A stretch of 64,000 nucleotides of DNA from Octopus vulgaris (taxonomy: Eukaryota): assembly GCA_951406725.2 (NCBI GenBank), contig OX597840.1, forward strand, positions 19,158,001 to 19,222,000. The letters run 5' to 3'. The translations under genes and the position numbers were made by a program. This document shows, piece after piece, positions 4,480-48,100 of the stretch. Under the pieces are notes generated by a model, which saw only the letters and a list, made by a program, of their open reading frames with translations, was not told the DNA's origin and did not search any database. The number at the start of each line of letters is the position of its first letter. Position 1 is the first letter of the stretch.

Positions 4480-4934
4480 TTTTTCCACACCGTTACGGAA
4501 GGCAAGTGTCCCTTTATCAATGCTATTGTATATATTAGACACATGCGTGAATGTGTGGTAAGGAGTTTACATCCTAACCCAATGGTTCAAGGTTCATTCC
4601 CACTGCGTAGAACCTTGGGCAAGTGTTTTCTATCAACTATAGCCATGAGCTAACAAAAACCTTGTAAATGGATTTGGTTGGCAGAAACTGAAAGAAGCCG
4701 GTCGCTTATATATATATATATATATATTTCTGCCAACCAAATCCATTTACAAGGTTTTTGTTAGCCCATGGCTATATTTGATAGATAACACTTGCGCAAG
4801 GTTCCACGCAGTGGGAATGAACCTTGAACCATTGGGTTAGGATGTAAACTCCTTACCACACAGTCACGCCTATGTCTAATATATACAAAAGCATTGATAA
4901 AGGGACACTGGCCTTCCGTAACGGTGTGGAAAAA
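4480..4934. repeat. Fold-back inverted duplication (about 210-bp arms) around a (TA)n tract, containing a tRNA-SINE head
   Basis: 4480-4688 vs 4727-4934 reverse complement, with several substitutions. Confidence 0.9.
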
Positions 4935-17476: not shown

Positions 17477-17949
17477 GTATATATATATGTATATATAGTT
17501 ATAGGCATGTATGTATGCATGTATGCACATCTTGCATCATGTATGCATATATGTATATATTCATGTACCGAAATATATGCCTGAATGCATGCGTGTTACA
17601 AATACTTTATTTGTAGCTTTTGTTGTTTTTTTATTTATAAATTTATAATTACTGTTATCATTTCATCATTTATCGATTAGCTGGATGCACCAATGCATTC
17701 AACATATTTACTCGATCGTATCAAATGAAAGAATTATTCTAGCACGAGAATTATTCATCGATCTCTACTTATCGAATCACTAAGGTACTATTTACACTGA
17801 CGTTTATGTTTTTAGACTGGGAAACATAAACATTGATACAGAACATACACGCTTTCAGACATATATATAGAGAGAGAGATGCATTTATACATATACATTT
17901 ATGTATACAAACATATTTATAGATACATATATACATAAATACATCTTGT

Positions 17950-18156
17950 TTCTTTACTGCCCACAAGGGGCTACACACAGAGGGGACAAACAAGGAAAGA
18001 CAAACGGATTAAGTCGATTATATCGACCTCTGTGCGTAACAGGTACTTATTTAATCGACCCCGAAAGGATGAAAGGCAAAGTCGACCTCGGCGTAATTTG
18101 TACTCAGAACGTAGCGACAGACGAGATACTGCTAAGCATTTCGCCCGGCATGCTAA
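17950..18156 (-). mobile_element. tRNA-derived SINE, family B
   Basis: Reverse-complement homolog of 25148-25360. Confidence 0.85.
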
Positions 18157-24036: not shown

Positions 24037-24070
<34 letters not shown>

Positions 24071-24140
24071 ATTATCGGTAGGAACTTTAACAAAAAGTTC
24101 TTTATATATATATATATATATATACATATATATATAAAGA

Positions 24141-24258: not shown

Positions 24259-24326
<68 letters not shown>

Positions 24327-24452
24327 ACAACAATTGAGGAACGGCTACAATAGGCCGTTCGACCCACTAGAAATAGCAGCCAGGGCTCCAACCGCAAATA
24401 GTAGTAATTCCGAAATCAAAGGAAAAATTAAAAAAACATTTACCCTGTTCTT

Positions 24453-24563
24453 CTTTAGACAATGCATTGTTTCGGCGTTTTTTAATGGTAAACCAGCCTG
24501 ATTAAATTAAATTAAACTTAATCAAGTCAACCTTCCAAAAGGCCAACGCGCTCATCAGTAAAG
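24453..24563 (-). ncRNA. Type I hammerhead ribozyme, intact core
   Basis: cttta-CTGATGA-gcgcgtt...aacgcc-GAAA-caatgcattg-TC-taaag. Perfect stem I, palindromic stem III acaatgcattgt, GUC site. Confidence 0.85.
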
Positions 24564-24753
24564 GAGCCAGAAGGGACAGAAATTACACGAGGCAGCTACC
24601 TTCATGCCTAGGTAATATCTGACCTAAAATTTTCAAAATCATCGTACTCGCGCCAACTTGTCGGCAGCAAATATAAACTGCCGATTCAATTTCGGAATTA
24701 ATCAGAAAATTATCAATTAATCAATTGACAGTAATTTCTGTCCCTTCTGGCTC

Positions 24754-24874
24754 CTTTAATGATGAGCGCGTTGGCCTTTTGGAAGATTGACTTGATTAAG
24801 TTTAATTTAATTTAATTTAATTTAATCAGGCTGGTTTACCATTAAAAAACGCCGAAACAATGCATTGTCTAAAG
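24754..24874 (+). ncRNA. Mirror hammerhead copy with C3->A core substitution
   Basis: cttta-ATGATGA-gcgcgtt...aacgcc-GAAA-caatgcattg-TC-taaag. Confidence 0.75.
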
Positions 24875-25093
24875 AAGAACAGGGTAAATGTTTTTTTAAT
24901 TTTTCCTTTGATTTCGGAATTACTACTATTTGCGGTTGGAGCCCTGGCTGCTATTTCTAGTGGGCCGAACGGCCTATTGTAGCCGTTTCTCAATTGTTGT
25001 TGAATTTATTCATAGTCTCTGACTATTTCCTCTTTCTCACTAGACCGCTGGTGGCAAAATAATTTCTATTGAATTTTTTGCTACCCTAAATTG

Positions 25094-25147
<54 letters not shown>

Positions 25148-25149
<2 letters not shown>

Positions 25150-25357
25150 CGGCGAGCTGGTAAAACGTTAGCACGCCGGGCGAAATTCGTCTGTCGTTAC
25201 GTTCCGAGTTCAAATTCCGCCGAGGTCGACTTTGCCTTTCATCCTTTCGGGGTCGATAAATTAAGTACCAGTTACGCACTGGGGTCGATGTATCGACTTA
25301 ATCCCTTTGTCTGTCCTTGTTTGTCCCCTCTGTGTTTAGCCCCTTGTGGGCGTAAAG

Positions 25358-25360
<3 letters not shown>
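25148..25360 (+). mobile_element. tRNA-derived SINE, family B (Meta-domain-like core, Tx1-like tail)
   Basis: A-box-like tggtaaaacgttag, B-box gagttcaaattcc, core gcctttcatcctttcggggtcgataaattaagtacca, tail ..tgtgggcgtaaagaaa; inserted in (TA)n. Confidence 0.88.
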
Positions 25361-25650: not shown

Positions 25651-25900
25651 ATAAATGAAAGAATGGAGTCGAACGGAGATGTTAACAAAATTCCTTTACT
25701 TTCGACACATGTTTCGAAGACAGCATATTTTCATTCCGAAGAAAGGGAGCCTCTCTCGACAACAAGACAAACAAAAATTCGATGATTGCCTACAATGCAC
25801 CCTTTATTCCTTCAGAATGAAAATATGCTGTCTTCGAAACATGTGCCGAGAGTAAAGGAATTTTGTTAACATCTCCGTTCGACTCCATTCTTTCATTTAT
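25651..25900. mobile_element. Small fold-back cassette (about 90-bp arms) with hammerhead remnant
   Basis: 25651-25741 vs 25810-25900 reverse complement. Confidence 0.85.
25751..25852 (+). ncRNA. Hammerhead variant (UCGACAA core), degenerate
   Basis: ctctc-TCGACAA-caagaca...tgtcttc-GAAA-catgtg-CC-gagag. Stem I 5 bp, stem II aagaca/tgtctt; the mirror arm retains GUC (gaaacatgtgTC). Confidence 0.6.
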
Positions 25901-26046
25901 ATGTATGTATGTATATATATATATATATATATCAATAATATAAGGGTAAATAATTATTAATTTTAAAATTAATAATTATTACCGAGTAGTTTCGGTATGG
26001 AAATCTAACCATTATCGGTAGGGACTTTTACAAAAAGTTCTTTATA

Positions 26047-26080
<34 letters not shown>

Positions 26081-26246
26081 TTGTTATCGCCATATTAATA
26101 TGGCATTCTTATAGATATAAGAATAATCGCTGCCGCTGGTCAGCTCCATGAGGCCACCGCCATCAAGATAGCTATTGATACACGATCTGTATCCATTATA
26201 ACCTTCGAACAAGGGAGGTCAGCCGCTTCACACTGCCAGTCCGACA

Positions 26247-26288
26247 GCTACAGACGCGTTTCGGGGTATTGCCCCTTGTCAATGTAGC
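26247..26288 (-). ncRNA. Compact type I hammerhead ribozyme with U3-A8 covariation
   Basis: gctaca-TTGACAA-gggg caata cccc-GAAA-cgcg-TC-tgtagc. 6-bp stem I, 4-bp stem II, palindromic acgcgt stem III. Confidence 0.88.
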
Positions 26289-26829
26289 GCAGTCAGACCC
26301 GCAGGTGTCGCCACTGACGTCTCTGTTCGAAGGTTTCTATGGACTTACACGCGCGCGCACACACACACGTGCATCACAGCATTGACGGTATTGCTGCTAC
26401 CCCACTGGCCAGGTGAGCAGGCCAACATTCTCCACTGGTCAGGGTTACCCATTTACTGCTGAGTGAAGGAGAGCCACGGGAAAGGAAGTGTTTTGCTTAA
26501 CAACACAATGCAACACACTCACCACTAAGCCACGCGCCTTCATACACACACACACATACACACACACACACACACACACATTCGCACACATACACATGTA
26601 TATAGACTGAACCACAAAAGAAACGTCGCGCACATACTAAGTAGAAATTAGTTTATTAGCAAACTGCCATAGCGTTGATTGAAAAGTGCTAATTAAGAAA
26701 CCGTTCTTTCCTAATGATAAAACGCCATTTCAAGAAACATGTTTGCCGTCACATGATGTCACGTGAATACGGAATGTCCTGGATCCAAAGTGATGAACTC
26801 AATATCTCGTGTGACCACCGTTAGCATTG

Positions 26830-27560
26830 ATTACCGTCAGGCATCTTCTATACATTGAAGGCACCAAGCGATTGATGAAGACCATGGGGAAAGCAGCCCC
26901 ACATTGTTAAAACTTGTAGTGAGTTGTGCCGCAGTTGTCGGCCCTGGACGGATGTCATTTAACCTTCTTTGAATCTCGTCCCACAGGGACTCTATGGGGT
27001 TCAACTCCGGACTTAGGACAGGACATGGCAGTATCTGGATGTTGTGCTGTTAGAAGAATCTTTTATCAACCTGGCAGTATGGGTACGTGATTCCGATGAC
27101 ACAATGTGAGGCCTCAACAGTAGGTCGATGTAGCGAGCAGTGTTTAGTCCAATGCTCCGGTCTTGGCCGATGTGTTTTGGAAGACCACTGGCCCAAGTTT
27201 CTGGTTGAGTGCAATCCCGCCCCATACCATGATGCTCTGCCCCCCCCATGAGTCTCGCCACTACACAACCATCGGCATGACGTTCACCCCTTCTCCAAAC
27301 CCCAGCTTTGCCATCTCTCTCTCTCTCTTTTACTCTTTTACTTGTTTCAGTCATTTGGCTGTGGCCATGCTGGAGCACCGCCTTTAGTCGAGCATCTGTT
27401 TTGTTTGTAGCATTGTATCGTTCTCTCAGCAGCGCAATTGTCTGAATACAGCAGTTCAAGTTATTAGCAATGACCCATGAACGTTGACCAGTATGGAGAA
27501 GTCCGATGGCTTGCTCCCTCTGATTTCGTATGTCTTGGCATGCTTGCCGCGTTCGGGATA
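26830..27560 (-). mobile_element. Tc1-family transposase remnant, internally deleted, with a SINE-A tail inserted at about 27330-27390
   Basis: QREQAIGLL..IANNLNC..TI (HTH); GGQSIMVWGGI; RYIDLLLRPHIV; SPELNPIESLWDEIQRRL. Confidence 0.85.
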
Positions 27561-27567
27561 CGAATGA

Positions 27568-29300
27568 TTTTTTTTTATTGCCCACAATGTGCCAATCATA
27601 GACGGGGACAATATAAATACACAGAGGGGTCGCGAATAATTATTACATTAAGATAAAGATATCATAAAAAATTTATGACATAAAACGGATGAAAACGCAA
27701 AACAATGGGACAATACAATGGAGTGGGGGGCGGGTACAGCTTTGGCCCCGCAAACCCCGGTGCTCCCTTGAAGCTTTGCCTTACTTCCATGGTTTACAAT
27801 CAAGAGGAGTCAGCCATTGTCAACTTTCGCGCCACATCCTTCCATCTTTTTCCATATATATCACGCGACATACACTTCCTCTCCCGTCTTATTTTCCTTT
27901 TAAGAGGGAAAATAAAAAAGCTCGCTAGAGCGAGACCGGAGATGGAGGTGCCTGTTGCTACTCCTTTCATTCTTGTCTTCCAAACCACCTCTTTTGCTAT
28001 AGCAACCACAGCGAGAAAACAAACTTTTCCTTCTCGATTTAAGGAAGAAGATGGAACAATCTTAATGATTGACTCGGAGGACAGATGTACTCCTCCTAGA
28101 CATGACAGCAGCTGTTCGATGTAAACCCACAGTTCCGATATTCTCGAACACTGCACAATCGCGTGCAGAACGTTTCGTCGTTCTGTTCGCACCTTGGGCA
28201 CATGGGCAGGCAATAATCACCCTGCCTTGCGAGTTTATCTCGAATTGGTAAAACCCCTCGGTAACATTGCCAGGCCAGAGGCTTTTGGAAATTATCCAAA
28301 GGCCCCGGCCCGAATGTCGGAACAGGCTGGCGAGTTAAGTAACGTCGAGGCCCAGAGGACGTCGTCGCACTTGCCCCCTACCAACCCTCTATAAAAGAAC
28401 CTGGTGGAATCCCCGCTGCTGGCATTACCCGTGTGAGAGAGGAGCACGAGAGTCTGACGGCACTCGGCTTACCATTCTCCCAACCTTGGTCTTTGCTTGA
28501 TCCACGTTTCCAGTTCACCGAAACTAGTAAACCTGGGAGGCATCAGTTTAACGAACGGAGACCATACCCGTTCACCATCAAGATAGAGCCATAGATGCCT
28601 CAGCCTCAGCACATGTCTGCGCATCAACAGCTAAGAAATCCATAGCCCTCCCTTTAGCGGCTGTTGTCATCAGATAGAGCGCCTTACAAGCGGACTTGTA
28701 CCCTTCCACAAAAAGCGGAAGAGCAAGCGCTTTAGCTTGCTTATCCGCAAAGCGGGGAAAGGCACGACCGTCAGGCGGTAGGTGATCACAGATGCGATAA
28801 ACACATTTGCGACCTCCGCCTTCCCTTTCAGAAATAGCCACCGCTCAGACCAGGTCCGAGTTAGGAGGGTCACCCTACTCGCCACCACACTCCAATTCTT
28901 CTCTATCTGGAGGTCCGTCCAAACAAGACCCGTAGCATTTTAACCAGTCCCACCGTCCAACGTCCGACGACGCTGTTGGGTGACACCGACTTGCTCCTCC
29001 ATGTGCCGAGTTGCAAGCCGACTGATTTATCCCGTTTAATTTTTGCTCCTGAAGCCGCTTCGTAATCCTTAATGGCTGCACCTAACCTCTGTATGTGATC
29101 CACCTCGGATACGATGATGGTGATGTCATCCGCAAAGGTAGAAACCAACTTTGCGTACCCTAGATCATGCGGGATGTCCCTCATCTCCCCCAATTTCCGC
29201 AGCGAAGGCTCCAGAACCAACACATACAGAAGTGGGGAGAGGGGTCACCCTTGACATACCGAGCGCTTGATTCAGAACGGTTTCGCTCGAATGATCGAAA
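27568..29300 (-). mobile_element. Tx1/L1-clade LINE, 5'-truncated ORF2 + 3' UTR + poly(A)
   Basis: QG*PLSPLLYVLVLEP; STFADDITI; SGAKIKRDKS; CLPMCPRC..ET zinc-knuckle-like region; aataaa + A-run at 27568-27580. Confidence 0.9.
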
Positions 29301-32719: not shown

Positions 32720-34430
32720 CCCCAATCCCGAAGGAGATAAAAAACTAAAGTAGATCTCGGCGAATTTTGAATTCAGAACGTAAAACCAGAAGCAATCCTG
32801 AAAAGACGGAAGAAATGCCAGCATTGCTAGCGATTCTGCCAGCTCGCCGCCTTTTTCATAATCCTTTTTACTAAAGCCACAAGGCTTGAAATTTTGGGGG
32901 AGGGGCTAATCGATTATATCAACTACAGTACGCAAATGGCACTTATTTCATCGACCCCCGAAGGGAGAAAGGCAAAGTCGACCTTGGCAGAATTTGAACT
33001 CAGAACATAAAGACAGACAAAATGTCGCTAAGTATTTTTCCGCGCTGTGCTAACAATTCTGCCCGCTCACCGCTCTCCAAACGCAAACAAAATAATGATA
33101 TATATATCGTTCTAAATTGCTCCTTACTTTAAGAATTAATTAAAAGCATAGGCTGTATATTTCAACAGAAATATGGTAACAGGAGTGTTAATAAGAATTT
33201 AGCTTTATGTCGTTTATTACAATTCGAATTTGCCTGGATATTGGATATGTATAGATTTATAGGACGTATATTGTCATATTGATATCATTAAAGAGACGTC
33301 AGGCAATGAGTTGGCAGAATCGTTAGCACGCCGGATAAAACGTGTAGCGGCATTTCGTCCGTGTTTACGACTGGGGTCAATGTAATCGGCTTACCTCCTC
33401 CGCCAATATTGCTGGCCTTGTGCTAAAATTTGAAACCAATAATATTTTAGAATCCAAGGCGGCGAGTTGGGAAAGGCATTAGCACACCGAGACTTTGCCT
33501 TTCATCCTTTCGGGGTCGATAAAATAAGTACCAACTGAACACTGGTGTCGATGTAATCGACTTACCTTCTCCATCGATTTTACTGGCCTTGTGCCAAAAT
33601 TTGAAAGCAATATTATTGAAGAATCTAAGGTGGTGAGTTTGCAGAATCATTACCACACCGAACAGAATGCTTAGAGCCATTTCGCACGTCTTTAGATTCT
33701 ATGTTCGAATTCTACCGAAATCGACTTTGCCTTTCATCATTTCGGGGTCGATAAAACAAGTAGGAATTGAGCACCGGCTTCGATGTAATCGATTTAACCC
33801 TCCCACGAACTTACTGGTCTTGTGCCAACATTTAAAATCGATATTATTTAAGAATCCGTTGAAACGTTTATGGCAATGAAAAAGCAACAGCTACACGTAT
33901 AACAAAATGTCTCGTGACATTTAATTTCATAATTTATACATCTTCATTTTTGGGGAATCGAAAATACAAAATATTAGACGTGACTGGGGGCATCTGAACC
34001 TTCACCAAACATACATGGATTAGTTTCCCATGAGTATTATCTGAAATCAGCAAAATACTGGAGAAATTCAGCTAAATTAAAGGGGCATTCTAATATAAAC
34101 AAACAAAATTGTTTCGGCTTTAGAATAATTTTTATTTCTTTATTGCCCACAAGGGGTAAACATAGAGGAGGACAAACAAGGACAGACAAGCGGATTAAGT
34201 CGATTATATCGACCCCCATTACGTAACTGGTACTTATTTAATCGACCCCGAAAGGATGAAAGGCAAAGTCGACCTCGGTGGAATTTGAACTCAAAACGTA
34301 GCCTCAGGCACGTGATTGTCTTTCATCCTTTCGAGATCAATAAAATAAAGTACCAGATATGTACTGTACTCGATAGTATTGGCTAATCCCTTCTAACATT
34401 GCTGGCCTTGTGCCAAAATCTAAAACCGTG
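32720..34430. mobile_element. Cluster of degenerate family-B-related SINE copies in both orientations
   Basis: Repeated gactttgcctttcatcctttcggggtcgat / ggccttgtgccaaaatttgaa motifs. Confidence 0.8.
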
Positions 34431-35197: not shown

Positions 35198-35707
35198 TAC
35201 ATATATACATATGTATATATGTATATCGATCCACGGTTAGTGCGTTTAATGGTTTATTTCATTCCATTTATTCTGTTTATTCGTTATTTACTGCCTCTTC
35301 TTGTTGTGTTTATTCTATTCATGTTCGTTTATTGCTTTCCATTCTTCCACTCCTCAAAATCTCCTAAAACGCCAAACCATACATCATCTCGGCGTCCGTC
35401 TTTGATTTATTGCTCTATGAAATTTTTCCTTATATTAAAAATTCTTTGTTAATCTCCTCCCAATTTTCCAAACAAATTTTAATTATGTTGCCCATCAGAT
35501 ATATATATATACAATAACTCCATTAATCTTCATAACAGGCCGCATTTGTTATCTTTCGAATTAATTTCTAAATAACTTTGGATATCATATACCTTATATA
35601 ATATGTAATATATAATACATGATGTATTATATTCTTTACTCTTTTGCTTGTTCAGATAATTTGACGCCGACGACGACGACGATGATGGGGAACCGTTTAG
35701 AATAATT

Positions 35708-36167
35708 TTCATTTCTTTATTGCCCACAGGGGGCTAAACATAGAGGAGACAAACAAGGACAGACAAAGGGATTAAGTCGATTACATCGACCCCAGTGTGT
35801 AACTGGTACTTAATTTATCGACCCCGAAAGGATGAAAGGCAAAGTCGACCTCGGCCTTTCATCCTTCCGGGTCGATCAAATAAGTACCAGTTACGCACTG
35901 GGGTCGATATAATCGACTTAATCCCTTTGTCTGTCCTTGTTTGTCCTCTCTGTGTTTAGCCCCTTGTGGGTAGTAAAGAAATAGGAAATTTTGTCTGCTG
36001 TTACGTTCTGAGTTCAAATTCCGCTGAGGTCGACTTTGCCTTTCATCCTTTCGGGGTCCATAAATTAAGTACCAGTTACGCACTGAGGTCGATGTAATCG
36101 ACTTAATCATTTTGTATGTCCTTGTTTGTCCCCTCTATGTTTAGCCCCCTGTGGGCAATAAAGAAAT
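35708..36167. mobile_element. Three family B SINE pieces (one minus, two plus) forming an inverted repeat
   Basis: 35708-35836 (-), about 35833-35983 (+), about 35985-36167 (+). Confidence 0.85.
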
Positions 36168-36619
36168 ATATATTTATTTACACATTTGACATGCTTAGAG
36201 TGACGACCGTTTCGCACCCTTTTTCATGTAGTGATAATTATGGTATGGAATAAATTATACTTACATTATTAAATATATATGTATGTTCTGCATTATATAT
36301 GCAAATAAATAAGGCTAGCTCCTCAGATCTCCAGGATACCATACTTATTCACACACATAAATTCATGTATGTATATATGTACACACAGATATATATATAA
36401 TAATACACACGCACAAACACAAACACACACACACACATATATGTATATAGAAAGATAGGTAGAGAGAAAGAGAAAGAGAGAGGGTGAGACGGAGAGAGAG
36501 AAATAGATAGCTAGAGGAAACGATGTCTCCACACTAAAGTCCCTTCACTGATGTAACCAGTCATTGGGGTGCCACTCTAGACGTTTTTCCAGCCAACCGT
36601 CGAACCGTTCTCCCAACCG

Positions 36620-42826: not shown

Positions 42827-44574
42827 TGTTGCTGCTGTTTTTGTTGTTTATCTTTAGTCTACCATTCTAGAGACCACGGGATGGGGTGAAACAAAGAAAG
42901 ATTAATTCTATCACTGAAAGACAGGATGGAAGGTCTTGCCCGATAGGATTCTACGCAAAATCTATCTACCAAATTTCACTCACAATGCTTTAATTACTGC
43001 TACCGTTTTTTTTTGTAGCATGTTAGAAAATTTCCCTGCTCAACACCTCTCGATTTCCTACTGTAATCGCTCAACACCTCTCGATTTCTTACTGTAATTA
43101 ACCATGCTTCTGTTTCAGTGAAGTATTGCTAATTTTAGAGACAGAAGAATCAGTACCAATTCACAACCAGTATTTTATTTATTGGTTTATTTATCAACCC
43201 CGGAAGGTTGAAAGTTAAAATTGACAGAAATGATAGAATGGGCACCTAAACAGCAAGCTTTCTTTTCAAATATCGATAAGTTTGACTTTATAAAAGAAAT
43301 AAAGGGTTGAAAAACTTTTGAGCAATGTGGGTACTTTCATACTTAAGCTTCCTTTCCTTTGGTTTATAGGCCTTCGACGACATATCTATGTAGGAGTATT
43401 GGCCTTAGGCAAACCAATTTTTACTTCTGGAAAAAGCTAGTCCATTAAATCTAGCCTCTACCCTTTTATCTGTCCAGCACAAGAGGTTCTAGCAGGAAAT
43501 TTCACTGCATTTGCATTACTCTTGTGGGTCAATGAGGCATGTAAGCCACTACATCACAACTAGAAATAGACCTTGTGGCAGAAATGCGGTTAAGATATTA
43601 AAAAATGTTTGTAAATTAATCAATGAATGAAATTGAAATAATGTATTACTTATCAAATGTTTTTCAATGATCCTATAATATTTCGGGAAAAAATTACCTT
43701 CTCAAATAAAACAAAAAGTAGAGCAATGAAAGATTCCAGAAAATACGTTGGAACCAGTGAACCCCCCAGTGGGTTACGGTCACAACGTTTGTTCTTTTTT
43801 CAGTTGTTTCGAAGAAAATCAATATAACCGTGGGAAATATAACAGTAGAAAAATCAATTTCTCTCTAAGACGAATAGACAGGTCGGAACCGTGAGATTCC
43901 TTTTTCTCTTGTCAGCATTCAAATTTATCCTAACACTCGAATTAGTTTTGCCGATGCAAAATGACACTTCTACTCTTTCTGTGTAGTTTTTTTCTTCAAT
44001 TCTACTGGGCAATGCATAAAAAGCTATACTTCAATATTTTCTGTGTGCTATTCTGAATGTTGATTTCCGGTGGATGACAAATCACAAACGTCTCTCTGTA
44101 CCAAGTGAATTTCATTCCTGGGTTAATGAGCAGATTCCTGTCGTAGAAGTAATACTCTCTGTTGTTAGAACAATGAAGCACCACTAATTTTTTGGAATAT
44201 AATTTAATCCTTTTTTCACGAATGCATCGCTGGAAATTTTTTAATAATAAATTTGCAAATAGCGTATTTTCAAATCTGGAAAAGATCTTTAAGAAAAATA
44301 GATAGAGCGAAAAACAATTTAAAATTTTTTAAAATGTTAAAGCAATTAATAGTCCACTCTGTATCACAGCTTTGATTCAAATACATCAAATTCTAAGCCT
44401 AAAAATGGATGTCCTTTTGCTGCTCTTAAAAGTAACATTAAATTTGACCATTTAACCACTCTGATTAATTAAGAGTATTGATTAATGCATCTAATTAGAT
44501 GTCCTTTCAAAAACGTCTTCCGAGAAATTCATATTTAATATTCCATAGTTTACACGCATCTGAGATGTTATGTA

Positions 44575-46975: not shown

Positions 46976-48100
46976 GGGTTGGGCAAAATAATGGAAACAC
47001 CTTTAAATTTCAAACAAATTTATTTTAATATGAAGTAGGACCACCTTTAGCAGTAATTACGACTAGAATTCTACGAGGTATAGACTCGTACAAAGTTTGA
47101 ATTGTTTCCAAAGGAATTTTTGTCCATTCTTCAGCTAAAACAGTCTCCAGTTCTTGTAGTGATGATGGTGGAGGATATCAATTCCTTACTTGTTTTTCTA
47201 AAATGCACCAAAAATGTTCAATAATATTGAGATCTGGGTGCTGTGGTGGCCAGATAAGATGTTCAACTTCACTAGAATGTTCCTTGTGCCATTCAGTAAC
47301 AAATTTAGTTGTGTGAATTGGTGCATTATCATCCTCAAAGATTGTGTTTCCCTCCGGAAACAGTTCCGCAACCATACGATAAATTTGATCAGATAAAATG
47401 CATAAATAGTCTTGACTATTAATTCTGCCATGATGGGAGACCATTGGGCCGGTGGATTTCCAAGATATACCCCCAACCCCACCGCAGATCATTACAGATC
47501 GTCTTCCATGTTTAACAGTTGGAAGAAGGCAGTTTGGTGCAAATGCTTCTTTTGGATGTCTCTACACGTATACTCGGCCGGTGGTCGGAAGTAAGGTAAA
47601 GGAGGTCTCGTCCAAGAAAATAACATTCTTCCACTGCTCTAGGGACCATTCCGGTAGATTTTTGCTCCACTCTAAACGCTTTGCAACGTTTGTTTTTTAA
47701 AGTAGTGATTTTCTGATTGCAGCCCTCCCATGAAATCTGGCTTTGTGCAGTTCCCAGCAAACAGTTTTTTGTGGAAACTGGGTTCTCAAGGTAGTCATTA
47801 AGCTCTGCGGTAGTTTTGGGAGCTGTATTTTTGTGATCCTTTCTAACAATTCGCATAAGAGTCCGACGGTCCCTATCTGAAAGTTTTGGTTTTCTTCTGG
47901 AGTTTTGTTTCGACGAGGAGGTTTTTCCCTCTTTCTCAAAGGCGGTCATTACTCTCGAGACAGTACTTCTTGATACACCAAACATTTCGGCTGTTTTCGT
48001 TACGCTAGCGCCTGCCAACAATTTGACTTCTTTGAAAGTCCAATAGATCTGTCCTTTTAATGAATTTTAATTACCTTTTTTCTGAAAAGAAACAGCAATT
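46973..48100 (-). mobile_element. Tc1 transposon, near-complete frameshifted transposase, one TIR, inserted in (TA)n
   Basis: AGASVTKTAEMFGVSRSTVS (HTH); FEDDNAPIHT..WPPQHPDLNIIEHFW; TIR caggggttgggcaaaataatggaaacac after TA. Confidence 0.92.

Follow-up and report, generated by a model that had tools for sequence, protein, structure and literature searches.

Metazoan non-LTR retrozymes are among the closest described counterparts of the locus analysed here: they are reported as non-coding, low-GC units arranged head to tail, present in high copy number, predicted to form self-paired circles and carrying one type I hammerhead ribozyme each (Cervera and de la Pena 2020, PMC7229834; Li, Clavereau, Pollet 2026, 10.64898/2026.07.22.740005). 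Hammerheads also lie in the repeated part of endonuclease-bearing Penelope-like elements (PLEs), whose insertions are described as an inverted, 5′-truncated copy standing head to head with a direct copy, with a tail at one end and a (TA)n target (Arkhipova et al. 2013, PMC3846280; Craig et al. 2021, PMC8557442). Pairs of hammerheads on opposite strands, 100–700 bp apart, have been ascribed to truncated PLEs, with palindromic helices III suited to dimers (Cervera and de la Pena 2014, PMC4209133). Finally, L1 elements acquire 5′ inversions by twin priming, in which the second target end anneals internally on the same RNA, so that on the template the inverted part ends, on its outer side, beside the point where the direct part has its 5′ end (Kojima 2010, PMC2912911).

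The locus compared here is a 772-bp insertion at 24325–25096 of a 64,000-nt stretch of Octopus vulgaris DNA (GenBank assembly GCA_951406725.2, contig OX597840.1, positions 19,158,001 to 19,222,000), referred to below as the window. It holds about 1.5 units of a roughly 490-nt hammerhead repeat, with the 5′ part inverted. The unit does not code for protein (across two units, stop-free frames reach at most 59 aa), has a GC content of 37.5% and, at 488–498 nt, exceeds the 150–450 bp given for the 2020 retrozymes (PMC7229834) and falls within the 51–972 bp of the 2026 preprint (10.64898/2026.07.22.740005). Judged from its sequence, it would work like a non-LTR retrozyme rather than as an autonomous PLE, there being no frame over 59 aa that could hold reverse transcriptase (RT) and GIY-YIG domains. 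Unlike retrozymes, the octopus copy is dispersed and half inverted. It is the insertion that resembles PLEs, and the link to Penelope hinted at in the preliminary description is supported: an inverted, 5′-truncated copy is set head to head with a direct copy, the tail is one-sided and the target is (AT)n, in which no target-site duplication is readable. It departs from endonuclease-bearing PLEs in lacking an RT or GIY-YIG frame, in a 94-nt tail against a published 30–40 nt, and in that its tail stops at the very place where the other copy has its 5′ end. The explanation that we favour, and consider probable, is that a non-autonomous Penelope-type element, similar to a retrozyme, was inserted half inverted by twin priming on an uncleaved RNA of at least 1.5 units, and that one of its ribozyme copies has decayed.

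The arms of the palindrome, 24325–24586 (262 bp) and 24731–25002 (272 bp), are 94.9% identical as inverted repeats (BLAST, E 1.6e-118), in keeping with the earlier estimate of about 265 bp each, and have no further copy elsewhere in the 64-kb window by BLAST. As had also been noted from the letters, they differ by one indel of 10 nt, in a (TTAAA)n tract, and by a few substitutions, of which there are four (24339/24988, 24362/24965, 24531/24786 and 24558/24759). A spacer of 144 bp (24587–24730) separates them, and the element runs 94 bp beyond the right arm, to 25096. Both ends of the insertion abut (AT)n: a left flank at 24278–24323, which belongs to an impure AT stretch beginning near 24040, and a right (AT)24 flank at 25098–25145. 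Read as copies of the repeat, the direct (3′) copy occupies 24325–24726 on the minus strand (402 nt, 5′-truncated) and comprises the left arm and the part of the spacer at 24587–24726, an internal piece of the repeat unit upstream of that arm with a short hairpin at 24661–24684. The inverted (5′) copy occupies 24731–25096 on the plus strand (366 nt) and comprises the right arm and the tail, which is present at one end only (25003–25096) and contains a stable hairpin at 25050–25085 (z −5.4). Between the two copies lie four extra bases, 24727–24730; together with the first bases of the right arm they form a hairpin of 5 bp (24727–24742). Two other palindromes occur in the window, neither with a hammerhead match: one at 4480–4934, with 208-bp arms that are 95% identical around a 39-bp centre holding an (AT)n run, and an imperfect one of 250 bp (83%) at 25651–25900, beside microsatellites and 550 bp from the hammerhead palindrome.

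Read outward from the centre, each arm encodes a type I hammerhead with a 5-bp stem I, core, stem II, GAAA, stem III and GUC, and the preliminary claim that both arms hold the same ribozyme with a 12-nt palindromic stem III is borne out in each arm. The left hammerhead (24453–24563, minus) is predicted to be intact: its core reads CUGAUGA at 24558–24552, with the CUGANGA, GAAA and NUH elements all present and the predicted cut between 24458 and 24457. The right one (24754–24874, plus) reads AUGAUGA at 24759–24765, exactly as first described, and the other sequence statements of the preliminary description hold as well. The altered base was correctly named C3, the position that pairs with G8; with A at position 3 and G8 unchanged the C3–G8 pair is lost, and the core is predicted to be inactive. 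Single changes C3G and G8C are reported to abolish activity, C3A not being among the changes given in that source (PMC11167929), and C3–G8/U3–A8 covariation is described in hammerheads (PMC3088659). The palindromic stem III and GUC site lie at 24854–24869 (plus) and 24473–24458 (minus); palindromic stems III that need dimers are described as usual in animal type I hammerheads (PMC4209133, PMC3088659). The surrounding helices are present, namely 5 bp in stem I, a G–C pair, bulge and 5 bp in stem II, and 4 bp or, in a dimer, 12 bp in stem III.

The feature that sets these ribozymes apart is stem II, put at about 80 nt in the preliminary description and here measured at 78 nt on the left and 88 nt on the right; in both arms it is predicted to form an extended hairpin (z −2.4 and −3.9, 200 shuffles each). 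Retrozyme helices are given as 4–8 bp, the dual PLE hammerheads are minimal motifs with a helix II of 7–8 bp (PMC4209133) and a shorter stem III than the 12-nt palindrome seen here, and the ‘long helix II’ of PMC13725137 spans 6–8 bp. The two octopus cores, on opposite strands and 201 bp apart, fall within the spacing of the dual PLE hammerheads. Neither this family nor a stem II of 80 nt was found in the main-text passages of the retrozyme and hammerhead literature searched, octopus and cephalopods included. Rfam gave no match at gathering score in the 64-kb window and ten weak matches, none to a hammerhead, in 24300–25050. A descriptor scan that accepted canonical or U3–A8 cores, the latter also described (PMC4209133), returned three matches in the window, all on the minus strand (24558, 26282 and 43705), and none in 30 of 30 shuffles; the copy at 24759 was the sole one-mismatch match in the window (mean 0.03 in 30 shuffles).

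The match at 26282 belongs to a separate minimal type I hammerhead (26236–26292, minus) with a compensated U3–A8 core, a 4-bp stem II and a 6-nt palindromic stem III, which adjoins (AT)n and is probably the end of another truncated PLE. The match at 43705 also has a U3–A8 core, has AT-only stems and may be due to chance. By eye, 25982–26020 (minus) resembles a degenerate hammerhead.

Public sequencing runs place the insertion within a repeat family. Of 24 runs listed, 20 contain part of the stretch, from 10 studies under 5 organism labels, and none is on record as RNA. We compared four of them, X1, X2, X9 and X12 (3 organism labels), over 24535–25108 at 85% identity or more, with 594, 817, 55 and 100 contigs aligned, respectively; each of the differences listed is 31 or more letters away from the contig end in one run or more. 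The border between left arm and spacer at 24586/24587 was spanned by contigs in all four runs (24535–24643 at depth 679 in X1, 24543–24628 in X2, 24535–24722 in X9 and 24535–24651 in X12), and the spacer therefore belongs to the minus-strand, left copy. The 144-bp spacer is thus not a separate PLE 3′ end; it forms part of the repeat unit and is continuous with the arm in four of four runs. All four runs also contained an opposite-strand joint leading from 25089–25096 to 24718–24725 (depths 713 in X1, 626 in X2, 70 and 6 in X9 and 41 in X12), and the 8-mers at 25089–25096 and 24719–24726 are exact reverse complements. The family order is thus tail, spacer, arm and tail again, passing from 25096 on the plus strand on into 24718 on the minus strand. 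This closes the unit at 488–498 nt on the evidence of short contigs in each of the four runs; an array of two full units was not seen directly among their contigs, and the locus itself does not hold two consecutive units with complete hammerheads, its copies being inverted and one core broken. Modelled as a circle, the unit is predicted to fold better than shuffles (z −3.9, 60 shuffles), with 58% of its bases paired.

The family is abundant and includes diverged subfamilies. In X1, summed depths are about 33,000 over the 3′ half of the ribozyme and 800–1,500 over its 5′ half, while the tail end and spacer reach as much as 400,000, compared with depths of 24–63 for the shallowest contigs listed, depth not being equivalent to copy number. 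At 85% identity or more in this run, the 5′ half of the ribozyme is 20–40 times less deep than the 3′ half. By eye, loose contig ends at 24605 and 24845–24854 resemble the neighbouring window sequence, so the diverged subfamilies seem to have in common both the order of the unit and the 3′ strand of its long stem II. Public contigs cover the segments 25035–25096 and 24605–24725, which contain stable hairpins, about ten times as deeply as the 3′ half of the ribozyme; these segments may together form a module common to a wider family whose ribozyme has diverged or is missing. At the cut site, A replaces C in 19% of X1 depth, a change compatible with the NUH rule, and listed variants affect 0 of 15 positions at 24854–24868 against 19 of 188 at 24869–25056, a difference that is not significant (chance about 0.2). 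An intron in the tail, with a donor-like site at 24884 and an acceptor-like site at 25042–25043, was considered and rejected: no joint skips it, and X2, X9 and X12 have loose ends without the acceptor. Two exact-pattern scans of metagenome contigs each returned no loci.

Set out in unit order, the insertion reads arm, tail, spacer and arm, 760 nt or 1.54 units, of which the first 366 nt are turned round, and since the unit repeats, this inversion yields the 262-bp palindrome. The inverted part has its outer end (25096) just where the direct part starts (24726), the two overlapping by 8 nt (24719–24726, minus), which is the adjacency expected of twin priming. Two independent ends would meet so closely with a chance of about 0.04, reckoned on a 488-nt unit for one locus and noticed post hoc. 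Sequence is kept on both sides of the cut site in both copies (139/227 and 269/133 nt), and the template must accordingly have been uncleaved or re-ligated. The differences from L1 twin priming are the missing poly(A), the missing readable target-site duplication and a different enzyme, and a palindrome arises here only because the template repeats. This meeting of ends was not found in the literature searched, and no record of twin priming in Penelope was found by title or opening of the abstract.

Under the explanation that we favour, the source would be a non-autonomous, non-coding retroelement of head-to-tail units of about 490 nt with one type I hammerhead per unit, and the template an uncleaved RNA of at least 1.5 units, either a tandem transcript or a circle. 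A Penelope-type RT/GIY-YIG enzyme acting in trans would nick both strands of an (AT)n run. At the first nick, cDNA synthesis would start 133 nt past the second hammerhead site, on its downstream side, and extend 402 nt to 24726; the other nick would prime on that RNA too, exactly where the first cDNA stopped (25096, with the 8-nt overlap), and extend 366 nt further upstream, after which the two cDNAs would be joined head to head at 24727–24730. The change of C3 to A in the inverted copy would be a private one without function at the locus, and read-through RNA, folded into a long hairpin, would not cleave itself. The likely agent is a Penelope-type enzyme: an inverted 5′-truncated copy, a one-sided tail and a (TA)n target are presented as standard PLE features (PMC8557442, PMC3846280), and a purified PLE protein is reported to cut AT-rich DNA, to extend both strands, to start inside RNA and to use uncleaved RNA (PMC11167929); a decayed element with RT and GIY-YIG frames and inverted flanks is also present in the window, at 82–2440. 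The anatomy, the continuity and closure of the unit in the family and the presence of C3 in its aligned contigs are observed; the priming mechanism, enzyme, RNA template, timing of the mutation, order of events and any ribozyme activity we infer from them.

A close rival differs only in the detail of priming. An inverted pLTR with a tail, as in PLEs, could arise from two cDNAs, primed from the two target strands and begun at two fixed start sites, possibly on two RNAs, or from snap-back, with the 8-nt meeting a coincidence. Such an architecture is the published PLE norm (PMC8557442, PMC3846280), in PAc the tail is set by a pair of start sites of the RT (PMC11167929), and the 5-bp hairpin at the junction recalls the self-priming model of PMC3846280; moreover, the arms differ at four sites, and the window base at 24965 retains a residual 5–6.5% of the depth in X1 and X2, a possible sign that two units served as source. 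Against it, family contigs continue through 25096 to the spacer and show no drop in depth beyond 25002, with the result that neither end looks like a dominant fixed start; the ends would have to meet by the chance given above; and snap-back alone leaves no 140-nt one-sided segment. We regard this rival as rather unlikely, while the two explanations taken jointly are very likely to include the true one.

Inverted duplications are a mark of staggered-break inversions. The 8-mers at 24719–24726 and 25089–25096 form one that flanks the inverted part, and a direct 1.5-unit insertion might have been inverted later at the DNA level through staggered breaks that left this duplication. That history is improbable: the second break would need to hit the exact 5′ end of the element, and no (AT)n was carried to the centre, where only the four bases of the junction are found.

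A palindrome of this kind also raises the question of assembly, namely whether two family copies were mis-joined, or fused into a fold-back chimera, across AT microsatellites. The inversion junction at 24727–24730 was crossed by no contig in the four runs, which by itself neither supports nor refutes it, and inverted PLE structures are stated to trouble assemblies (PMC8557442). The arms differ, however, at four sites and an indel, a mis-join would not be expected to keep the unit coordinates to within 8 nt, and the gaps in cover of the runs prove nothing. The right arm, besides its A at 24759, carries the family-minor allele at 24988 and 24965. Of the minor alleles at 24965, 24988 and 25011, two or more are present in an X1 contig of depth 44 that matches 24909–25018 with one difference, and this argues against the palindrome being a mere mirror artefact. 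The view that the palindrome is not a simple assembly mirror thus holds, a mirror being unlikely, and an artefact of either kind has a low probability, though marginally above that of a later inversion. Among the arm differences that could be polarised, with 24531/24786 and the 10-nt indel left out, three of three place the minor allele on the right arm (chance 0.25).

The close subfamily, at 85% identity or more, keeps C3. Long contigs cross 24558 well inside their length, and no G-to-T change is among the listed differences in any of the four runs. The A at 24759 appears in no aligned contig, X2 contigs there lying too near their ends for differences to be listed; depth is zero over 24735–24814 in X1, X9 and X12, the gap in cover at 24735–24834, part of which was skipped as repeat, being no sign of absence. 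The change looks private to the locus, and the broken ribozyme copy is most likely a matter of ordinary decay and not a direction switch.

The preliminary description expected self-cleavage for only one direction of transcription; in a functional form of this reading, the locus would be kept in order that only minus-strand transcripts cleave themselves. The minus copy alone has an intact core. Folding predictions bear on the rest. A transcript of the whole cassette in either direction is modelled to fold to about −510 kcal/mol, and forcing the hammerhead in this read-through RNA costs a predicted 153 kcal/mol (minus) or 147 kcal/mol (plus), the ribozyme being buried in a hairpin of about 260 bp. 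In both directions the antisense arm would be made first and would trap the ribozyme as it emerges. Only an RNA that starts within the spacer is predicted to escape the long hairpin, at a hammerhead cost of 9.3 kcal/mol against the 153 kcal/mol of read-through, a point in the switch’s favour. With the ribozyme trapped in read-through RNA whichever way it is transcribed, a one-way switch is unsupported. The A, in addition, occurs in no aligned family contig, the locus sits amid microsatellites and decayed transposons, and it is not rare for one of four substitutions to fall on the approximately 13 core bases of 262. We therefore hold a maintained switch to be the least probable of the readings weighed here, and highly improbable in itself. 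In short pieces the hammerhead fold is modelled at 6.5–7.6 kcal/mol above the minimum, or up to 9.3 kcal/mol with the spacer-start RNA counted in; pairing of dimers through the palindrome is predicted to gain 16.7 kcal/mol over two monomers of the same elements, and a double hammerhead built by hand (−59.3 kcal/mol) is calculated to lie above the free cofold (−69.7 kcal/mol).

The surroundings consist of microsatellites and decayed transposons. A Pfam search of 94 of the 227 stop-free frames of the window identified a decayed PLE at 82–2440, with broken RT and GIY-YIG frames at 548–1960 and inverted flanks of about 85% identity; its GIY-YIG match is weak (E 4e-4, below the Pfam cut-off), and we take the degenerate Cys motif in front of it to suggest the Neptune clade. 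The octopus unit shares no sequence with the PLE pieces of the window (best E 0.19). Fragments matching DDE_3 and helix-turn-helix families (transposase-like) and RVT_1 lie at 26840–27049, 47181–48066 and 28906–29244, and seven further matches were of low complexity or to host domains. A dispersed SINE-like family of about 180–200 bp is present at 25148–25360, 17946–18124, 34119–34302, 35696–36178 and other places, with some inverted pairs; the short repeat at 25148–25360 is presumably an octopus SINE. A 36-bp motif is repeated at 24068–24103 and 26008–26043, each time directly in front of an (AT)n run.

A palindrome with opposed hammerheads is thus a described by-product of Penelope-type insertion, and the unusual part of this one is the very long stem II. 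A larger reading, which we advance tentatively and think less likely to be right than wrong, is that the locus samples an undescribed and very abundant retrozyme family with a circular RNA of about 490 nt, an active hammerhead whose 80-nt, microsatellite-tipped stem II would be missed by standard descriptors and Rfam, and insertion into (AT)n by a Penelope-type enzyme, with the two strands of the target primed on a single RNA, multimeric or circular. If that reading is true, the inverted copies would be insertion-level evidence that PLE proteins mobilise retrozymes, and would read out how the inverted ends of PLEs are made. The finding bears on which enzyme moves animal retrozymes, for which PLEs are proposed candidates (PMC7229834), and on how PLE inverted ends arise, where self-priming has so far been inferred (PMC3846280); an abundant repeat unit lets both questions be tested by counting junctions. 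And if a hammerhead with an 80-nt stem II is active, descriptor searches would be undercounting the ribozymes of animals.
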